DNA of 64,000 bases from a virus: IMG/VR virus record IMGVR_UViG_3300046542_000291, positions 51,641-115,640 of that record; one strand, 5' to 3'. This document shows positions 2,438-52,281 of this stretch, piece after piece; the stretch's first letter is position 1, and the number at the start of each line of letters is the position of its first letter. A program made the translations under genes and the position numbers. The notes under the pieces were generated by a model, which searched no databases, was not told the origin of the DNA, and was given only the letters and a program-made list of their open reading frames with translations.

Positions 2438-2513
2438 GGATCAGTAGCTCAATTGGCAGAGCAACCGATTCCAAATCGGTAGGTTCCAAGTTCGACTCCT
2501 GGCTGGTCCGCCA
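2438..2513 (+). tRNA. trnW: tRNA-Trp (anticodon CCA), 76 nt with encoded CCA
   Basis: Hand-folded: acceptor GGATCAG/CTGGTCC (one G-U), D-arm GCTC-AATTGGCA-GAGC, anticodon arm ACCGA-TTCCAAA-TCGGT, variable AGGTT, T-arm CCAAG-TTCGACT-CCTGG, discriminator G, CCA. Confidence 0.85.
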
Positions 2514-2877: not shown

Positions 2878-3552
2878 ATGTTCGTCGATATCAGTGCCTA
2901 TTTGATCGCCACTCCTCTTCCAGTCTCCGATGAAAATCCGGTAGCGCTGGAACTCCTCGGCTCGGAAGCCTTGGTAAACTGCAAGGACGTGATCTGTCAA
3001 CTGGAAGACGGCTCCATACAACTCTCCGCTCCCACGTTGGGGGCATCTAGCAAAAGTACACACCGCACTCGGTGTGAATGGAAAGAGCCAGCTTACTGGG
3101 CTCTCGCTAGTGCCGCACATCACTGGTCTCGCCAAGAGATGGCTGTTACTCAGGTCAACTCAGCTCAGAAAGTAGTGATTGCACAAACACATGTGAAAGG
3201 CGCCACTACTCCGCCCCTGAAAGTCTTCTGGAATAAAGGGAAGATTACAGCTGGATTCCGTTCGAGTTTCGTTGATCCCACGATCAACAACTTTACCCTA
3301 CTCGAAGACGTGCCTCTCGGCATACTCTTCAAAGTAAGCCTGCATGTAACAGCGGCGGGTTCTGTTTCCGTCAATGTCCTTTGCGAAGGGCGTAAATCGG
3401 TGTGTCCGGTGTTGAAATTGGACAGCTCGTGGAAAGACCAGACCTTCCAGTTCCATGGGGGTGTTTACAACCAGATCGATTACAGCGATACGACACCGCC
3501 AGAAGATGGTTCTATCTGCATAATCACCGAGTTGTCAACAACGCATTACTAA
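2878..3552 (+). CDS. hypothetical protein (224 aa)
   Basis: ORF-track ORF; GAGAGTAAAG RBS region before ATG. Confidence 0.55.
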   Translation: MFVDISAYLIATPLPVSDENPVALELLGSEALVNCKDVICQLEDGSIQLSAPTLGASSKSTHRTRCEWKEPAYWALASAAHHWSRQEMAVTQVNSAQKVVIAQTHVKGATTPPLKVFWNKGKITAGFRSSFVDPTINNFTLLEDVPLGILFKVSLHVTAAGSVSVNVLCEGRKSVCPVLKLDSSWKDQTFQFHGGVYNQIDYSDTTPPEDGSICIITELSTTHY

Positions 3553-31568: not shown

Positions 31569-32429
31569 TCAGTTGCCGCCGTTGAAGACTTTGTTGCTCA
31601 TGCCGGGGGTACCGAACGCTTGGTACGGTGCGAACACCACGTTCTTGTTCTCCGCCATCAGAGCTTGAACTTTCAGCGCTTCGTACGCCAGCAGATTCGG
31701 GCTGATACCCGCCGCCGTGATTTCGTTTTGATCGCGCAGAGTGCGAGCAACAGTCAGATCGATTTCACGTTGTGCTTGAGCCAGCTTCAGCGAGTTTTCA
31801 CGCTTGACCATTTCAATGGCCTGCTGGTTTTCTTCGGTCTTGATCGCCAGTTCACGTTCGGACTGTTTCTCGATCGCCTGCGTGATCACGTCCGGATACT
31901 TCAGATTGGCCAGGGTAACGTTGGAGACTTCCAGAGGAGAGTTCGCCATCGCTTCTTTCAGCTTGATCTGAAGATCTTTGTTGATCTGATCGAAGTTGGT
32001 ACCGACGTCTTCGGTGCGATATTTTCCAACGACAGAGCGAGCCACGGTTTGAACCATGTCACGGCCGTAGACACCGTACACCTGTTGCAGCGATACCAGG
32101 TTGTCTTGCACCTTGATGTCGTTGAACATGGAGTTGATGGTCTTGTCACCACCGCCGATACGAGTACGGAAACGGATCTCGAACTGGAGATCCATCCGAT
32201 CGAGCATCTTCACCCGCATCGTTTCCGAAACGGTTTGCGTCGACGTATCGAGCAGAACCAGTTCTTCACGCATGCCGATGGTGTACTTGCCGGTTTGCTT
32301 CACTTCGGTCGAGTAGCCATCAGGCGACAGGATTTTGCCGAGGTGTGCAGGGGGAACGGTCACGCGGTTGCAACCAGCGACTGCCAGCAGGCACAGCGAA
32401 ACGATCAGCGCTTTGATTCCGTACTTCAT
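31569..32429 (-). CDS. SPFH/band-7 (prohibitin/HflK-like) domain lipoprotein (286 aa)
   Basis: Signal peptide with lipobox LAVAG-C. Characteristic SPFH region (...VTLANLKYPDVITQAIEKQSERELAIKTEENQQAIEMVKRENSLKLAQAQ...) with coiled-coil tail. Confidence 0.75.
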   Translation of the reverse strand: MKYGIKALIVSLCLLAVAGCNRVTVPPAHLGKILSPDGYSTEVKQTGKYTIGMREELVLLDTSTQTVSETMRVKMLDRMDLQFEIRFRTRIGGGDKTINSMFNDIKVQDNLVSLQQVYGVYGRDMVQTVARSVVGKYRTEDVGTNFDQINKDLQIKLKEAMANSPLEVSNVTLANLKYPDVITQAIEKQSERELAIKTEENQQAIEMVKRENSLKLAQAQREIDLTVARTLRDQNEITAAGISPNLLAYEALKVQALMAENKNVVFAPYQAFGTPGMSNKVFNGGN

Positions 32430-44600: not shown

Positions 44601-46001
44601 TTATTCTTCGTCGTCTTTCTTCTTTTCCAAATACTGAGTACTTACAGCTTTAAAGCTGAACACTCGGTCGGTGCACTTGAACACCAGTCCTTCGCGGTAA
44701 GTTTTCTTCGGTTGTTTCGGATCGACATTGAACGCACGCGGACCTTCAGCCATCAGGAGAATATCCTGAATAGTAGTGCCCACCGGAATAACAAACTTCT
44801 CATGCATGACCGGGACGTAAGGAAGGCCGATGGCAGCACATACACCACGAGCTTCTTCCGGCAACAACTCCTGGCTACCATTGCGGTATACGCTGTAGAC
44901 ATGGTATTCAACATCTTCCACGCCTTCGAAGCCAGACTGGATATCTGGACCGATCAGCTCGCCTTGAACAGTGATGTATTCACCTGTCTCTTCCTGGTAC
45001 GCCTTCAGCTTCTCAACCACCTTGTTCTTGGTGACGTAGCGGGTGAAGTTCCGGGAGGTGCTGTCGCCAATACCGGTGTTGGCTTTCCATTCAGGGACGT
45101 GAAGGTTGTTCATACGGAACGCCCATTTGCCATCTTCGTCCTTGAAGAACCACGACTTCGGTTTTAGGAAGTTGCGGTTGCGCGCCAGGAGGGTACCGAT
45201 CCAGTAACGGATCTGATCTGGTTTGGACCATTCCTCGTCACCGATAACCAACTCGTAGTTACGCGAGCAAACGCCAGTACGAACACCACCATCATCCAGG
45301 CAGAATACCGTCATGGAGCTACCGTCGAGTTTCCAGGTAACTTCGAATTCAGTGCCTTCCGCCTTTGCCGCTTCGAACGCGACTGTCTTGTTCTGGATAC
45401 GATCCTGATCAGACTTGAGCAGTTGCTTCGGCCATGGCAGGAGAGCATTACCCACGTTACCGAGGATCTTACGTACCAGACGCATGTACCAGCCAGAACC
45501 AGCTGCAGCCTGTTGCGCCGGCGACATGAGTGGCTTGGCTGCAAACTTCAGGATGCCCAGCTCCAACGTCATGTTGGTTTCAGCTGGAAGGTCTTTGTAT
45601 TTCTCTGGGAGTGGTACAACCAACCCCTGGGCCAGCTCCTTACGAAGACGGAGCGTGCGCAAACGGTGATAAGCCTTACCGTTGATCAGGCGGTTATCGG
45701 AACGGCGTGCCTCGAGGAACCCGAACAGTGGGTTATCGATTGGCAACAGCGAGTCGATCTCGCAGTACACCACACGGTCACCCTTCTTGTATTCGTCCAG
45801 CTTGACCACGCACTGCCAGCCGCCGATGATTGCCAGAGACAAGGCATCAGCATTTGGATGTTTGATCACGTCGTCAAGTACGACGATACGCGCCAGTTTG
45901 CGGTCGGTTTCAACCACCCCGTTCCCCTCACGGATTGGTTTGAGTTCAGCAGCTACATCGGGGGTAGCGGTTGCGACTTCGATCTTTTCTACGACAGACA
46001 T
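44601..46001 (-). CDS. ATP-dependent polynucleotide (RNA/DNA) ligase with an N-terminal OB domain resembling tRNA-binding (Myf/EMAP-like) domains, 466 aa
   Basis: Nucleotidyltransferase motif I WKLDGSS (KxDG) and motif IV EGLVFK. N-terminus (ARIVVLDDVIKHPNADALSLAIIGGWQCVV...KKGDRVVY) follows the HP.AD.L pattern of tRNA-binding OB domains. Confidence 0.75.
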   Translation of the reverse strand: MSVVEKIEVATATPDVAAELKPIREGNGVVETDRKLARIVVLDDVIKHPNADALSLAIIGGWQCVVKLDEYKKGDRVVYCEIDSLLPIDNPLFGFLEARRSDNRLINGKAYHRLRTLRLRKELAQGLVVPLPEKYKDLPAETNMTLELGILKFAAKPLMSPAQQAAAGSGWYMRLVRKILGNVGNALLPWPKQLLKSDQDRIQNKTVAFEAAKAEGTEFEVTWKLDGSSMTVFCLDDGGVRTGVCSRNYELVIGDEEWSKPDQIRYWIGTLLARNRNFLKPKSWFFKDEDGKWAFRMNNLHVPEWKANTGIGDSTSRNFTRYVTKNKVVEKLKAYQEETGEYITVQGELIGPDIQSGFEGVEDVEYHVYSVYRNGSQELLPEEARGVCAAIGLPYVPVMHEKFVIPVGTTIQDILLMAEGPRAFNVDPKQPKKTYREGLVFKCTDRVFSFKAVSTQYLEKKKDDEE

Positions 46002-46017
46002 GTTTCTTCCTTAGGTC

Positions 46018-46266
46018 TTATTGCAAAGGTTTGCAGGTTACAGTGATTTTTGCCATACGGCTCGACAGTGCGCCACCATCGACTCTCGATTCAACGTAGT
46101 CTTTGGTTTCTTTGACGAGGTAAGGCTTCATGCCGTATGTCTCTACGACTTGTTCAATTGCGGCTGGACACGTGTTGGCATCTGACAGTTCTGTGACTGT
46201 TGGTGCACCACCAGGTCCTGCGCCTGTATTGAACGCAAATGCGATAACAAGTAACGCTTTCATCAT
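46018..46266 (-). CDS. small secreted protein (82 aa)
   Basis: Signal peptide MMKALLVIAFAFNTGAG; two Cys. Confidence 0.5.
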   Translation of the reverse strand: MMKALLVIAFAFNTGAGPGGAPTVTELSDANTCPAAIEQVVETYGMKPYLVKETKDYVESRVDGGALSSRMAKITVTCKPLQ

Positions 46267-47546
46267 TACCCCTTAACGCAGAGAACCTGCTTCAGCGTGT
46301 GGACGATCTCGACGAGTTCAGCCTGAGCTGCCATCACGTCTTCGATGTTCTTGTACGCCTTCGGGGTCTCATCGAGCACACCTTCATCTTTACGGCATTC
46401 AACACCAGCCGTATCGCGGATGTGATCTTCGATGGTGAAGTTACGGTTAGCCGCTTTACGCGACATCACACGACCAGCACCATGCGAACAGGAGCAGAAC
46501 GACTCACGGTTGCCCTTACCACGAACGATGAACGACTTCGCACCCATCGACCCTGGGATAATACCCAGAGTACCTTCCTCGGCGTTTACGGCACCTTTAC
46601 GGGTAACCAGAACGTTCTCACCGAAGTGACGTTCCTGGGACACGTAGTTGTGGTGGCAATTGATTGCCGCCATGTCGGTGTCGATTGGCAGGTTCAGGGT
46701 TTTGTGGATCGCCCCCAGAACAGCCTTCATCATGAGCGTACGATTCAGTGCTGCGAAACGCTGTGCCCACGATACCGCCTGCAGGTAGTCGTCGTAGTAC
46801 TTGGTACCGTGTGGCAGGTAAGCCAGATCTTGGTCTGGTAGATGGATAAAGAAACGACCCATCTCTTCCTTTGCCTTGTTGATGAAGTACTGACCGATCG
46901 CATTCCCGATACCACGGGAACCAGAGTGCAGCATTACCCACACACGCTGTTCCTCGTCCAAGCACAGCTCAACGAAGTGGTTACCGGTACCGAGAGTACC
47001 CACATGGTTCCACGCCCGTTGTGCAGCCTTGGTGAGCTTCGGGTGTTTCTCAACGATTTGGTTCAGTTGCGTTCGCAACTTCTCCGCTTCAGCAGCGATC
47101 ATGATGTCCTTGTTATCGAACACAGTCACCTTACCGAAAGCACCACGGTCGTTTGGACCACCGTTGTCAGTACGGCCATGTGGTACTACCGCTTCGATAG
47201 CTGCCCGCAGATGGCCGAGGCTATCTGGCAGTTGGTCTGCACCGAACGTCAAGCGACGAGCGGCCATTCCGCACCCGATATCGACCCCCACCGCAGCGGG
47301 AATGATTGCACCTTTAGTAGCAATGACGCTACCGACAGTGGCACCCAACCCGAAGTGTACGTCCGGCATTACTGCAACGTGCGAATGGATGAACGGCAAC
47401 GACGCCAGGTTCTTCAACTGCTTGACTGCGGTCTCTTCGACTGGAACCCCCACGGTCCAGCCTTTAATCGGCTTCGAACCCGGTTCAGGTTCGCCACCAA
47501 TGATTTCGAAAGACTTATCTTGCTGCTGGGATTTCTTTTGTTTCAT
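46266..47546 (-). CDS. rtcB: RtcB-family RNA ligase (3'-phosphate/5'-OH ligase), 426 aa
   Basis: Blocks HFGLGATVGSVIA, DIGCGMAA, GTLGTGNHFVEL and HSGSRGIGN match conserved RtcB metal/GTP-binding motifs. Confidence 0.9.
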   Translation of the reverse strand: MKQKKSQQQDKSFEIIGGEPEPGSKPIKGWTVGVPVEETAVKQLKNLASLPFIHSHVAVMPDVHFGLGATVGSVIATKGAIIPAAVGVDIGCGMAARRLTFGADQLPDSLGHLRAAIEAVVPHGRTDNGGPNDRGAFGKVTVFDNKDIMIAAEAEKLRTQLNQIVEKHPKLTKAAQRAWNHVGTLGTGNHFVELCLDEEQRVWVMLHSGSRGIGNAIGQYFINKAKEEMGRFFIHLPDQDLAYLPHGTKYYDDYLQAVSWAQRFAALNRTLMMKAVLGAIHKTLNLPIDTDMAAINCHHNYVSQERHFGENVLVTRKGAVNAEEGTLGIIPGSMGAKSFIVRGKGNRESFCSCSHGAGRVMSRKAANRNFTIEDHIRDTAGVECRKDEGVLDETPKAYKNIEDVMAAQAELVEIVHTLKQVLCVKG

Positions 47547-48225: not shown

Positions 48226-49542
48226 TTATGCCGCTTTGAGAAGGGGCAATGTGGGGATGGATGCAATAAAGGCATCCGGGTCACGGCGATGTTCAAGGAA
48301 CAACGCTTGCAGGTCACAGCCCGCTATGTCCTCGAAACACCCACTGAATTCGTAGGTATGCTCCGGGAACACAACATGGATGTACTCGCGTACTTCTACA
48401 TCGGTCAAGTAACCGATTTCCATCAGGTGGTCCACTCGACCTTTACGAACTACCGCATCATCGATCTTGTCGATGTGGTTGGTAGTCATGAAGATCACCG
48501 TGCCGTTCAGCGAAACCACCCCGTCCAACACGTTGAGCACTTTGCTCAGGGTCAACCGGGAGAACTCTTCGTTCAGGGCTTCGAAGATGTTTGCTTCCGC
48601 AACTTTCTTCTTGGCTGGCGCCGCCGGTAAAGCACCGAGTGTTTCCACCGGTTCAACCTTTGGCTTCTTCGGTGTACGCGCCTTGAAGGCAGCCGAACTG
48701 TCGAAGTCTTCGATCAACACCACCGAGTTCGGGGGCAGGTGACTGAGGGCTTTCTCGAATGACGTATCGTCCATCGAGTTGATGTTGATGGTGCAGATGT
48801 TCTTGCCGAAGTGGGCAGCCAGTGCCTTGATGATACTGGTCTTGCCTGTACCTGGCTTACCGTGGATAACAAACGTCGACTTGTAAGCCATGCCACGTTC
48901 GTTGTACCACTCTTCACTTTCGTAGAACTGTTCCAGCTCGAAGATCAACTTATCCTTCGTAGCTTTGTTCATCGCTACCGTCTTGAGAGGACGCTTCTTG
49001 ATCTCACACAGGTACTGCCAGCCTTGATCACCGGTGTACGTATAGATGCGGGACTTCAGTGAGTTCTCTTTCGGCATGAACGAACTGACCAGGTCCTTCA
49101 ACACTTGTTGATTACGACCCCAGGTGAAAATCGTGACGCGTTCTTTCTCGTTGGTTGACCCTTGACTGTTCAATGCTTCTTTCTTGAACCAGTACAGGCG
49201 TCTCTTATAAACGAAGAAGTGTGTGCCGAAACCAGGGCCTATAATTGTCCGGCTGTTGGGTGACTCCAAGCTGATGTTCCGCGAGTAGCGTGACCAGGGT
49301 TGTTCACAGAACCACTGCATGAAGGACGTGAAGTGAACACGGTCTTCTGACCAAGCGGTGGCGTTGTTGAACGTCAGGCTGGTCATGCATTGTTTCAGTG
49401 TGGCCGAGTACACCGTTTTGGGCACCTGCCGCAGTATCGCGTACAGGAACCCCATTAGGCCAGCAAGGACGATGCCTGCTGCCCAGGGGGAAACCTTGTT
49501 GAATGTCAGGTATTGCTGCTGAAGCCAATCAATAAATTCCAT
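48226..49542 (-). CDS. membrane-anchored AAA+ ATPase, BCS1-like (438 aa)
   Basis: N-terminal TM helix plus a BCS1-N-like region. Walker A IHGKPGTGKTSII, Walker B VVLIEDFD, arginine-finger region. Confidence 0.75.
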   Translation of the reverse strand: MEFIDWLQQQYLTFNKVSPWAAGIVLAGLMGFLYAILRQVPKTVYSATLKQCMTSLTFNNATAWSEDRVHFTSFMQWFCEQPWSRYSRNISLESPNSRTIIGPGFGTHFFVYKRRLYWFKKEALNSQGSTNEKERVTIFTWGRNQQVLKDLVSSFMPKENSLKSRIYTYTGDQGWQYLCEIKKRPLKTVAMNKATKDKLIFELEQFYESEEWYNERGMAYKSTFVIHGKPGTGKTSIIKALAAHFGKNICTININSMDDTSFEKALSHLPPNSVVLIEDFDSSAAFKARTPKKPKVEPVETLGALPAAPAKKKVAEANIFEALNEEFSRLTLSKVLNVLDGVVSLNGTVIFMTTNHIDKIDDAVVRKGRVDHLMEIGYLTDVEVREYIHVVFPEHTYEFSGCFEDIAGCDLQALFLEHRRDPDAFIASIPTLPLLKAA

Positions 49543-51405: not shown

Positions 51406-52281
51406 TTACGCATTGATCCAGGTGAGTTTGTTATCGACAACACCGTCTGGGCGAGTACTGCCCTGTGCTGTCGGATGGAACGAGTTGGTGGTGTAGACGT
51501 GGTCGTACTTTTCAGTAACCAGGTCGAAACCGTACGAGAAGATCCCGTGCGTTACCAACAGTTCCAATCGTGCTGGATTATGCTTGCGGATTTCTTCAGC
51601 CAGTTGGATGAAGGTCCGTCCACCATCACAGATGTCGTCACAGACCAGCAGTCGTTTGCCAGTTACATCGGCATCGAACTTGGTCTTGGTGATTTCCATC
51701 GTTTCCAGGTCACGCTCTTTAGTAGCCGTGATGTAACCAGCGCAGCCCAGGTGAGCAGCCAACGCTTTCACTTTCTTGACAGCCCCTGCATCAGGAGCCA
51801 CCAGCCAGGTATCGTGCAGTTCGTTTGCCGTAGCATCCAACATGTGCACGATGTCAGCCTGGGTCTTGACGATCACGCGGTTGATCAACGCCGGCGTAGT
51901 GTCGCTGTGCGGGTCCAAAATGGTCACACTGACGAACTCACAGAGGTTGATCAACTTCGCTGCTACCGCAATACCCAACGACTCCCCGGGGTTACACACG
52001 CGGTCCTGCCGGGCGTAAGGGACATAAGGGATATATGCGCTTACCGGTACGTCGGGACGAATGCGACGGATCGCATCGGTAACGTGCAGTAAAGCGAGGA
52101 AGTCAGTTGGGGTACGGAGGTTGGCCATGACTTGAATGTCCATGCAACCGCGGATTTTGTTGTGGAACTCTTTCGGAATAAGTGGGTTAACTTCCCCACC
52201 TTTGAACGTGCTCACGTCAACGATAGTCTGCGCCACTCCCCAGTGGTCGCCATTGCCGCGTCGGATACTTAAACGAATCAT
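51406..52281 (-). CDS. prs: ribose-phosphate pyrophosphokinase-family enzyme (PRPP synthetase, or ADPR-pyrophosphokinase-type homologue), 291 aa
   Basis: YARQDR motif and PRPP-binding loop LLVCDDICDGGRTF; immediately upstream of the nadV-like gene. Confidence 0.85.
   Translation of the reverse strand: MIRLSIRRGNGDHWGVAQTIVDVSTFKGGEVNPLIPKEFHNKIRGCMDIQVMANLRTPTDFLALLHVTDAIRRIRPDVPVSAYIPYVPYARQDRVCNPGESLGIAVAAKLINLCEFVSVTILDPHSDTTPALINRVIVKTQADIVHMLDATANELHDTWLVAPDAGAVKKVKALAAHLGCAGYITATKERDLETMEITKTKFDADVTGKRLLVCDDICDGGRTFIQLAEEIRKHNPARLELLVTHGIFSYGFDLVTEKYDHVYTTNSFHPTAQGSTRPDGVVDNKLTWINA

Follow-up and report, generated by a model that had tools for sequence, protein, structure and literature searches.

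RNA ligases of the Rnl5 family are defined by an N-terminal OB domain followed by a C-terminal nucleotidyltransferase (NTase) domain (PMC1807946, PMC4408790, PMC7261155), and the N-terminal module was proposed in 2007 to be a putative homologue of the B2 OB fold of PheRS (PMC1807946). In the characterised enzymes DraRnl and NgrRnl, adenylylation of the catalytic lysine requires the OB domain, which contacts the ATP gamma-phosphate via R4, K121 and D53, but the sealing of a pre-adenylylated nick proceeds without it and is even hindered by it (PMC4408790, PMC7261155). The NgrRnl active site comprises R4, D53, K121, R149, K170, D172, E227, E312 and K326 (PMC7261155). [quoted passage not shown] The physiological role of the family has been called "uncharted", with DraRnl tied to post-irradiation DNA repair, not RNA repair (PMC5397189). 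In phage RNA repair, RtcB and ATP-dependent ligases are viewed as non-redundant (PMC7824862). Here we describe a ligase gene located next to an rtcB gene in a 64,000-nucleotide stretch of DNA (the window), which belongs to a jumbo phage of ~310 kb that is kin to PhiPA3, 201phi2-1 and D6.

A complete Rnl5-type ligase

The gene (Table 1) is an ORF on the minus strand with an ATG start, encoding 466 aa followed by a stop codon, and its limits are exactly those given in the first-pass annotation. A Shine-Dalgarno-like AAGGAAG lies 4-6 nt from the ATG on its upstream side, and the preceding ORF terminates at a stop codon 16 nt upstream of the ATG. This is a real gene with two parts, an OB domain and a nucleotidyltransferase core.

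Assignment of the product to the Rnl5 family, alongside DraRnl and NgrRnl, is virtually certain. Pfam searches matched PF21189 at aa 42-131 (E 5.5e-24) and PF09414 (RNA_ligase) at aa 218-453 (E 2.5e-19), and PHROG 968, annotated "RNA ligase", covered aa 30-463 (E 4.5e-101). The sequence of the NgrRnl crystal structure 5COT was retrieved by phmmer at E 5.8e-41 and by a profile of 69 homologues at E 1.4e-105. An AlphaFold2 model of the full-length protein (pLDDT 89.4) superimposed on NgrRnl over both domains in Foldseek (TMt 0.86-0.87, E 1e-29), with T4 Rnl2 and Rnl3 enzymes ranking far behind. The equivalog model TIGR02306 (RNA_lig_DRB0094) matched in two stretches with 104.9 bits (E 4e-30), below its cut-off of 151.15. 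That cut-off is a curated NCBIfam annotation threshold rather than a biological boundary, and the low score would fit with the two insertions described below. A DNA ligase was considered and rejected, the best matches being RNA ligases and DNA ligases appearing in Foldseek only at E > 1e-4 with TM about 0.25.

The first-pass annotation had called the nucleotidyltransferase core complete, with motifs I and IV. Both are present (K224-LDGSS and RE437GLVFK) and, judged by its motifs, the core is indeed complete. Alignment to 5COT recovered counterparts of all nine NgrRnl active-site residues: R34, D83, K152, R201, K224, D226, E348, E437 and K451. K224 is the predicted AMP-accepting lysine, corresponding to K170 of NgrRnl, D226 corresponds to D172, and R201 aligns with R149. 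Seven of the nine residues are invariant or at least 90% conserved among the 69 homologues, D226 falling in neither class; K224, N248, E348, E437 and K451 are invariant in this alignment. The ATP contacts of the OB domain are also kept, R34 (R4) being invariant and D83 (D53) and K152 (K121) at least 90% conserved. The protein ends 15 aa past the motif V lysine and has no C-terminal appendage.

Table 1. Features of the ligase locus; coordinates refer to the window and aa numbers to the ligase.
Feature	Coordinates	Strand	Basis or remark
RtcB 3'-phosphate/5'-OH RNA ligase gene	46266..47546	-	Pfam PF01139 E 2.1e-128; PHROG 1075 E 5.9e-150
Shine-Dalgarno-like AAGGAAG, ribosome-binding site	46006..46012	-	Sequence inspection; ATG at 46001
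Complete ORF, Rnl5-family ATP-dependent RNA ligase	44601..46001	-	ORF list; Pfam PF21189 and PF09414; NgrRnl PDB 5COT; PHROG 968
N-terminal extension, aa 1-33	45903..46001	-	Missing in short Rnl5 enzymes; conservation poor; predicted disordered
OB-fold N domain, aa 34-156, PF21189	45534..45902	-	Carries R34, D83, K152
Insertion 1, OB-NTase linker, aa 157-186	45444..45533	-	Common to homologues of at least 400 aa
Nucleotidyltransferase (adenylyltransferase) domain, aa 187-466, PF09414	44604..45443	-	Pfam; Foldseek to NgrRnl
Motif I, K224-L-D226-G-S-S	45315..45332	-	5COT alignment; K224, G227, S229 invariant
Motif Ia region, CSRN, aa 245-248			N248 invariant
Insertion 2, aa 252-316	45054..45248	-	Common to homologues of at least 400 aa; directly after motif Ia (CSRN 245-248)
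Motif III, Q346-G-E348-L-I-G	44949..44966	-	E348 = NgrRnl E227; Q346, G347, E348 invariant
Motif IV, R436-E437-G-L-V-F-K442	44676..44696	-	E437 = NgrRnl E312; R436, E437, G438, V440 invariant
Motif V, V-F-S-F-K451-A-V-S	44640..44663	-	K451 = NgrRnl K326; K451 invariant

Three segments depart from the characterised enzymes. The N-terminal extension is occupied at 0.3-0.7 among long homologues but at 0-0.17 among short ones, is modelled at pLDDT 52-68 across aa 1-20, and on its own gave no Pfam match at E <= 10. Insertion 1 is predicted to form two short helices (161-167 and 171-180), and aa 161-180 are occupied at 0.94-0.97 in homologues of at least 400 aa, as opposed to 0-0.09 in those below 400 aa. 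Insertion 2, around which the NgrRnl alignment is split (query residues 34-251 and 324-463), has a high content of aromatic (10) and basic (10) residues and is modelled at pLDDT 73-92, with a long helix at 260-274, a beta hairpin at 285-295 and further short helices; aa 261-310 are occupied at 0.62-0.97 in long homologues and 0-0.11 in short ones. Searched alone against Pfam at E <= 10, it yielded just a meaningless ZapC_C match (E 0.24). Both insertions are shared by relatives of at least 400 aa, a group that takes in the named jumbo phages and nearly all of the closest relatives, and they define a jumbo-phage Rnl5 subclade with two conserved insertions near the nucleic-acid-contacting motif Ia. 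These segments (aa 157-186 and 252-316) could alter substrate preference, the second directly following that motif. The same large insertions and N-terminal extension, together with the sub-threshold TIGR02306 score, might instead mark an inactive derivative that has kept the fold for some other role; this is very improbable, given that every NgrRnl catalytic residue is present, neither insertion interrupts a motif and the model has high confidence.

The gene is widespread, with 992 homologues and occurrence in 337 phage records. Its closest named homologues are the annotated RNA ligases of jumbo phages D6, Psa21, PhiPA3, Phabio and 201phi2-1, which are 38-66% identical over at least 93% of the length, the values varying with the alignment used. 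The sequence itself is new: its nearest relative shares 65% identity with it, and among GenBank phages the closest reaches about 62%.

Proposed kinship of the OB domain with tRNA-binding folds

The first-pass annotation read the first ~85 aa, quoting the peptide RKLARIVVLDDVIKHPNADALSLAIIGGWQCVVKLDEYKKGDRVVYCEIDS (aa 34-84), as a putative tRNA-binding OB domain in fusion with a polynucleotide ligase, an architecture it had not seen described. Both parts of the fusion are there, yet the OB fold is larger, spanning about aa 34-156, and an N-terminal OB domain joined to an NTase domain is the very hallmark of Rnl5 (PMC1807946, PMC4408790, PMC7261155). By profile, the N-terminus belongs to the ordinary N-domain of a known Rnl family, although one related to tRNA-binding OB folds. 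The ligase is an ordinary member of a described family whose architecture and OB resemblance were published between 2007 and 2015.

The phage domain does look like tRNA-binding domains. With the OB domains grouped in PF01588 (tRNA_bind: Trbp111, CsaA, YgjH, EMAP II, Arc1p, the C-terminal domain of MetRS and B2 of PheRS beta) it has in common an HPNAD-like motif and a K/R-L-R-x-x-x-S-x-G-hydrophobic motif. The predicted model places it cleanly within the tRNA_bind fold subtype, with a similarity above that of generic OB folds, which confirms the subtype structurally for the Rnl5 OB domain. To these shared elements the phage domain adds the Rnl5 catalytic residues: R34 precedes the first strand, K152 sits beyond the aligned core in a C-terminal extension, and D83 aligns to a Thr in YgjH. 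Unlike the tRNA_bind domains, the Rnl5 OB domain is fused to a ligase and is used in the family for positioning ATP and pyrophosphate.

Profile-to-sequence searches did not recover this kinship. The isolated N-domain failed to match PF01588 in Pfam at E <= 10, its sole match being PF21189; E. coli YgjH, run as the positive control, matched PF01588 at 1.8e-33. Likewise, the 69-homologue family profile run against PDB sequences at E <= 10 retrieved NgrRnl and other RNA and DNA ligases and no tRNA-binding chain. The sensitivity of HMM-to-sequence comparison is insufficient for detecting OB kinship of this kind. Comparison of the N-domain with the YgjH family by hhalign gave a P value of 3.1e-4 and a probability of 39% over 74 columns at 19% identity, an underpowered comparison because the YgjH-seeded tRNA_bind alignment consisted of the best 120 matches, all at least 84% identical (Neff 1.4). 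Modest value lies in the structural support for placing the Rnl5 OB domain within the tRNA_bind fold subtype, in the insertion-bearing jumbo-phage subclade and in the adjacency of the RtcB and Rnl5 genes. Discovery value is otherwise small, since the architecture is textbook Rnl5, the OB kinship was published in 2007 and the jumbo-phage orthologues are already annotated as RNA ligases.

Genomic neighbourhood and proposed role

The rtcB gene lies directly upstream of the ligase on the same strand, the sole intervening ORF (46018-46266) encoding 82 aa. This arrangement is found in none of the five closest relatives examined: in D6 the RtcB and Rnl5 genes are about 38 kb apart, not adjacent, and in four other close relatives RtcB is absent within 5-6 kb of the ligase. 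On these distances a conserved RtcB-Rnl5 operon was rejected, and since adjacency is not kept in these relatives it is weak evidence of a functional pair. A block containing PRPP synthetase, Nampt and thymidylate synthase genes around the ligase is conserved in the four closest relatives showing the region, and partly in a fifth; genes for the same three enzymes are also located near the ligase in the window. End-healing enzymes (Pnkp polynucleotide kinase/phosphatase, 2H phosphoesterase, KptA and RlaP) were not found by Pfam searches of 31 window ORFs and PHROG searches of 10 of these 31, a scan that lay beside many further small ORFs and so leaves their absence unproven.

We consider it likely that the protein is an ATP-dependent RNA ligase of the Rnl5 type that seals nicks in three steps and serves RNA repair in a jumbo phage. 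From its family membership, fold and conserved catalytic residues we infer its activity, substrate and biological role as follows, taking NgrRnl and DraRnl as guides. Lys224 would attack the ATP alpha-phosphate to form ligase-AMP, assisted by two metal ions held by D226, E348 and E437, with R201 and K451 of the NTase domain and R34, K152 and D83 of the OB domain gripping the gamma-phosphate and second metal and orienting the pyrophosphate leaving group. AMP would then be transferred onto the 5'-phosphate at the break, and attack by the 3'-OH of the RNA strand would seal the nick. The OB domain may be viewed as a derivative of the Trbp111/PheRS-B2-type tRNA-binding fold that was recruited as a catalytic cofactor for the first step. 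As predicted from the sequence, the reaction would be an ATP- and Mn2+-dependent sealing of 3'-OH(RNA)/5'-PO4 duplex nicks via ligase-AMP, the likely substrate being a 3'-OH/5'-phosphate nick in duplex RNA, or in an RNA strand whose partner is RNA or DNA. In the phage, the most probable use would be the repair of RNA broken during infection, where the ligase would complement the adjacent RtcB, which joins ends of the opposite chemistry (3'-phosphate or 2',3'-cyclic phosphate with 5'-OH). That no end-healing enzyme was found among the 31 ORFs counts against this reading, as cleavage by the usual metal-independent anticodon nucleases would not obviously yield 5'-phosphate/3'-OH ends.

The conserved nucleotide-metabolism block could point in another direction, towards DNA metabolism. 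As the phage genome is replicated or repaired, the enzyme would seal nicks with a ribonucleotide-ended 3'-OH side, for example at junctions that are RNA-primed or contain ribonucleotides. DraRnl would be a precedent, as its requirement for RNA is confined to the 3'-OH side, the 5'-PO4 and template strands can be DNA, and its deletion slows genome reassembly after irradiation (PMC5397189). We regard such a role as unlikely: no phage offers direct evidence for it, the nucleotide-metabolism genes are only loosely grouped with the ligase, several small unknown ORFs separating them, and the immediate neighbour here is RtcB, an RNA ligase.

A dedicated tRNA sealer, as the first-pass annotation proposed, would use the OB domain, perhaps with the insertions, to dock tRNA and would act with RtcB against host anticodon nucleases, preferentially resealing broken tRNAs as T4 Rnl1 does via its C-terminal domain. 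Phage ligases are generally thought to mend cleaved tRNAs (PMC7824862), and the motif-level alignment with E. coli YgjH, the RtcB gene directly upstream and, in a relative with 43% identity (L008), a CCA-adding-type enzyme encoded 2.6 kb upstream of its ligase all fit such a function. It finds no support, however, in the characterised enzymes, which need a nicked duplex and use the OB domain for adenylylation and not for joining (PMC1807946, PMC4408790, PMC7261155). Because the ATP-contact residues are conserved in the phage protein, the OB face toward the active site is occupied by catalysis, and tRNA binding is reported for no Rnl5 enzyme in studies of the family (PMC1807946, PMC4408790, PMC5397189, PMC7261155). 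The failure to match PF01588, the modest hhalign probability and the missing RtcB adjacency in relatives also speak against it, as does the presence of a single tRNA gene within the 64-kb window, 42 kb from the ligase. Both the docking of tRNA by the OB domain and the preferential resealing of tRNAs are therefore improbable. That the jumbo-phage Rnl5 clade has retained or regained tRNA binding in its OB domain with help from the insertions, so that a tRNA-specific sealer and RtcB together cover both end chemistries, is a long shot; if true, this would be the first physiological substrate defined for the Rnl5 family. A phage with adjacent RtcB and Rnl5 genes could be a convenient system in which to study Rnl5 function in vivo.

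Comparison with described ligases

NgrRnl of Naegleria gruberi (PDB 5COT/5COU/6VT0-6VTG) shares with the phage enzyme the order of OB and NTase domains and the lack of a C-terminal appendage, at 28-29% identity. It is a eukaryal protein of 339 aa, whereas the viral one, at 466 aa, adds the 33-aa N-terminal extension, the ~30-aa linker insertion and the ~65-aa insertion after motif Ia. DraRnl (DR_B0094 of Deinococcus radiodurans), the founding Rnl5 member and namesake of TIGR02306, has the same architecture, motifs and Pfam families, but is encoded in a radiation-induced bacterial operon rather than beside RtcB in a phage genome, and the clade-specific insertions belong to the phage ligase. The "RNA ligase" genes of D6, Psa21, PhiPA3, Phabio and 201phi2-1 are direct orthologues, with the same insertions and the same PHROG 968 assignment. 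[quoted passage not shown] The fold match is weak, however (Foldseek E 3e-4, TM about 0.25-0.30). The specificity domain of Rnl1 is an unrelated, all-helical C-terminal one, and the enzyme acts on single-stranded breaks in the anticodon loop, whereas Rnl5 enzymes act on nicks in duplexes.

Assignment of the ligase to the Rnl5 family

The ligase ORF lies exactly where the first-pass annotation placed it. Its ATG is preceded by an AAGGAAG ribosome-binding site, and the stop codon of an 82-aa ORF is found 16 nt upstream. The OB domain and ligase core seen there are likewise borne out, since Pfam matches to PF21189 ('PHA02142 OB-fold domain'; aa 42–131, E 5.5e-24) and PF09414 ('RNA ligase'; aa 218–453, E 2.5e-19) show both parts to be real, far beyond chance. 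The peptide first taken to indicate tRNA binding corresponds to aa 34–84.

A sequence search of PDB entries matched the ligase to the Naegleria gruberi RNA ligase NgrRnl (5COT and its mutants, E 5.8e-41), with HMMER aligning 5COT in two blocks, aa 34–251 and 324–463; with a profile of 69 homologues the match rose to E 1.4e-105. PHROG 968 ('RNA ligase') covers aa 30–463 (E 4.5e-101), and the NCBIfam model TIGR02306 (RNA_lig_DRB0094, the family of the Deinococcus radiodurans ligase DraRnl) matches at E 4e-30 with a score of 104.9 bits, under its equivalog cut-off of 151.15. The full-length AlphaFold2 model (mean pLDDT 89.4, pTM 0.83) superimposes on NgrRnl with a target-normalised TM of 0.82–0.87 and E ~1e-29 in all 13 NgrRnl matches listed; T4 Rnl2, archaeal Rnl3 and T4 Rnl1 follow at E 5e-7 or worse and TM ~0.3. 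The Rnl5 family is defined by NgrRnl and DraRnl, its signature being an N-terminal OB module and a C-terminal nucleotidyltransferase (NTase) domain with no C-terminal appendage (PMC1807946, PMC4408790, PMC7261155). Matching both this family and its published signature, the 466-aa protein is therefore an Rnl5 ligase, and the suggestion that its architecture was undescribed fails.

Catalytic residues were mapped by counting through the HMMER alignment to 5COT, in which the PDB chain number is the native number plus one. NgrRnl R4, D53 and K121 of the OB domain correspond to R34, D83 and K152 of the ligase, and R149 of the NTase domain to R201; K170 (the AMP acceptor) and D172 of motif I correspond to K224 and D226, E227 of motif III to E348, E312 of motif IV to E437, and K326 of motif V to K451. 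Across the 69-sequence alignment R34, R201, K224, E348, E437 and K451 are invariant, and conservation of D83 and K152 is 90% or more; D226 is present in the ligase itself but falls in neither group. There is no sign of an inactive derivative, the NgrRnl catalytic residues all being present.

Role of the OB domain

By analogy with characterised Rnl5 members, Lys224 would react with ATP to form ligase-AMP, the AMP would be moved from the ligase to a 5'-phosphate, and attack by the RNA 3'-OH would seal the break. Without their OB domain, NgrRnl and DraRnl are severely impaired in overall nick sealing and in lysine adenylylation, and the truncated enzymes still seal a pre-adenylylated nick equally well or better (PMC1807946, PMC4408790). 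Crystal structures place R4 and K121 at the gamma-phosphate of ATP and D53 at the complex of the second metal, contacts that orient the pyrophosphate leaving group (PMC7261155). The simplest reading of the conserved R34, D83 and K152 is that the ligase OB domain would, as in these enzymes, serve catalysis as a cofactor module, one derived by exaptation from an ancestor that bound tRNA.

The first-pass annotation had instead proposed a dedicated tRNA sealer carrying its own tRNA-recognition module. The fold kinship behind this proposal stands: ranks 2–17 in the OB-domain comparison are taken up entirely by tRNA_bind-type OB domains, a relationship already known. At the sequence level the link is weak. 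PF01588 did not match the isolated N-domain even at E <= 10, while the positive control, E. coli YgjH, matched it at 1.8e-33. Aligned by hhalign to the YgjH family, the N-domain gave P 3.1e-4 and a probability of 39%, against an alignment of low diversity (Neff 1.4) because it was built from the best 120 matches listed, all close relatives. This alignment pairs HPNAD with HENAD and RLRTLRLRKELAQGLVV with NLQKAKMRGETSECMLL; R34 falls ahead of its core, K152 beyond the core in a C-terminal extension, and D83 stands opposite a threonine. The ATP-contacting residues are, in this alignment, specific to Rnl5. The nicks that Rnl5 enzymes are known to seal have 3'-OH/5'-PO4 ends and lie in duplexes with RNA as the 3'-OH strand, and nothing in the biochemistry of the family favours a tRNA sealer; the Rnl5 papers cited report neither an Rnl5–nucleic acid complex nor an assay of tRNA binding. 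With the ATP-contacting residues of the OB domain conserved, this domain is probably not a tRNA-recognition device, and dedicated tRNA sealing is quite unlikely.

Genomic neighbourhood

Features of the window around and beyond the ligase gene
Feature	Position	Strand	Remarks
tRNA-Trp (CCA)	2438–2513	+	only tRNA gene in window
Alginate lyase	2878–3552	+	PF08787, E 2e-37; after tRNA-Trp
SPFH/Band 7 protein	31569–32429	-	
Glycine-zipper protein, 141 aa	43137–43562	-	downstream of ligase; lipoprotein-like N-terminus
ORF, 237 aa	43841–44554	-	directly downstream of ligase; no match in Pfam, PHROG or NCBIfam
Ligase, 466 codons	44601–46001	-	
ORF, 82 aa	46018–46266	-	sole ORF between RtcB and ligase; hydrophobic, signal-peptide-like N-terminus (MMKALLVIAFAFNTGAG)
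RtcB ligase	46266–47546	-	directly upstream of ligase; PF01139 E 2.1e-128, PHROG 1075 E 5.9e-150
BCS1-like AAA ATPase	48226–49542	-	BCS1_N + AAA; PHROG 7485, unknown function; between Nampt and RtcB
Nicotinamide phosphoribosyltransferase (Nampt), 610 aa	49611–51443	-	upstream of ligase
PRPP synthetase	51406–52281	-	overlaps Nampt by 38 nt
P-loop NTPase, 447 aa	54361–55704	-	weak nSTAND3/AAA matches near aa 255–290
Thymidylate synthase (ThyA), long, 457 aa	56579–57952	-	Pfam model of 266 positions

RtcB joins a 3'-phosphate or 2',3'-cyclic phosphate to a 5'-OH, and Rnl5 enzymes join a 3'-OH to a 5'-phosphate. These chemistries being opposite, the pair would cover both, in line with the view of phage RNA ligases as non-redundant (PMC7824862). 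This pairing is not a conserved one, and none of the five closest relatives checked has it: jumbo phage D6 carries RtcB at ~21.5 kb and its RNA ligase at ~59.5 kb, and in four others there is no RtcB within 5–6 kb of the ligase. Among 31 window ORFs scanned with Pfam there was no polynucleotide kinase/phosphatase or 2H phosphoesterase. In a more distant relative (L008, 43% identity) the ligase gene has a PolyA_pol plus HD enzyme of the CCA-adding type 2.6 kb upstream (1103–2380, + strand of that locus); in that lineage the two may be associated in tRNA repair.

In relatives whose loci extend far enough, PRPP synthetase is followed in turn by Nampt, an unknown ORF, ThyA, several small ORFs and the ligase; the BCS1-like gene has no counterpart in the corresponding region. 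PRPP synthetase and Nampt form an NAD-salvage pair. Nampt aa 211–554 match profile positions 2–222, with an apparent insertion; the ThyA match is split into two stretches, implying a large internal insertion, and ThyA is similarly long (466–486 aa) in relatives L002, L004, L005, L006 and L007. The 141-aa protein matches Gly-zipper_YMGG and Rick_17kDa_Anti, both under cut-off. The P-loop NTPase and SPFH/Band 7 protein are unusual cargo for a phage, and the alginate lyase suggests an alginate-producing host, consistent with Pseudomonas-like hosts.

Comparison with known Rnl5 enzymes

Compared with Rnl5 enzymes of ~340 aa, the ligase has an additional 33-aa disordered N-terminal extension, a helical insertion of ~30 aa between the two domains, in their linker (aa 157–186), and a ~65-aa insertion right after motif Ia (aa 252–316). 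The last, which includes a long helix and a beta hairpin and is rich in aromatic and basic residues, has no Pfam match. Both insertions occur in nearly all homologues of at least 400 aa and are lacking in shorter ones. The long homologues take in nearly all the closest relatives, as well as the annotated RNA ligases of the Pseudomonas jumbo phages D6, Psa21, PhiPA3, Phabio and 201phi2-1. In the protein collection an identical sequence is found a single time, on a metagenomic contig of 310,396 bp, and the nearest relative is 65% identical; 337 GenBank phage records hold a homologue, mostly annotated as RNA ligase. The ligase is thus a new sequence in a known family with characterised structures and biochemistry, from a jumbo-phage subclade already annotated in GenBank.
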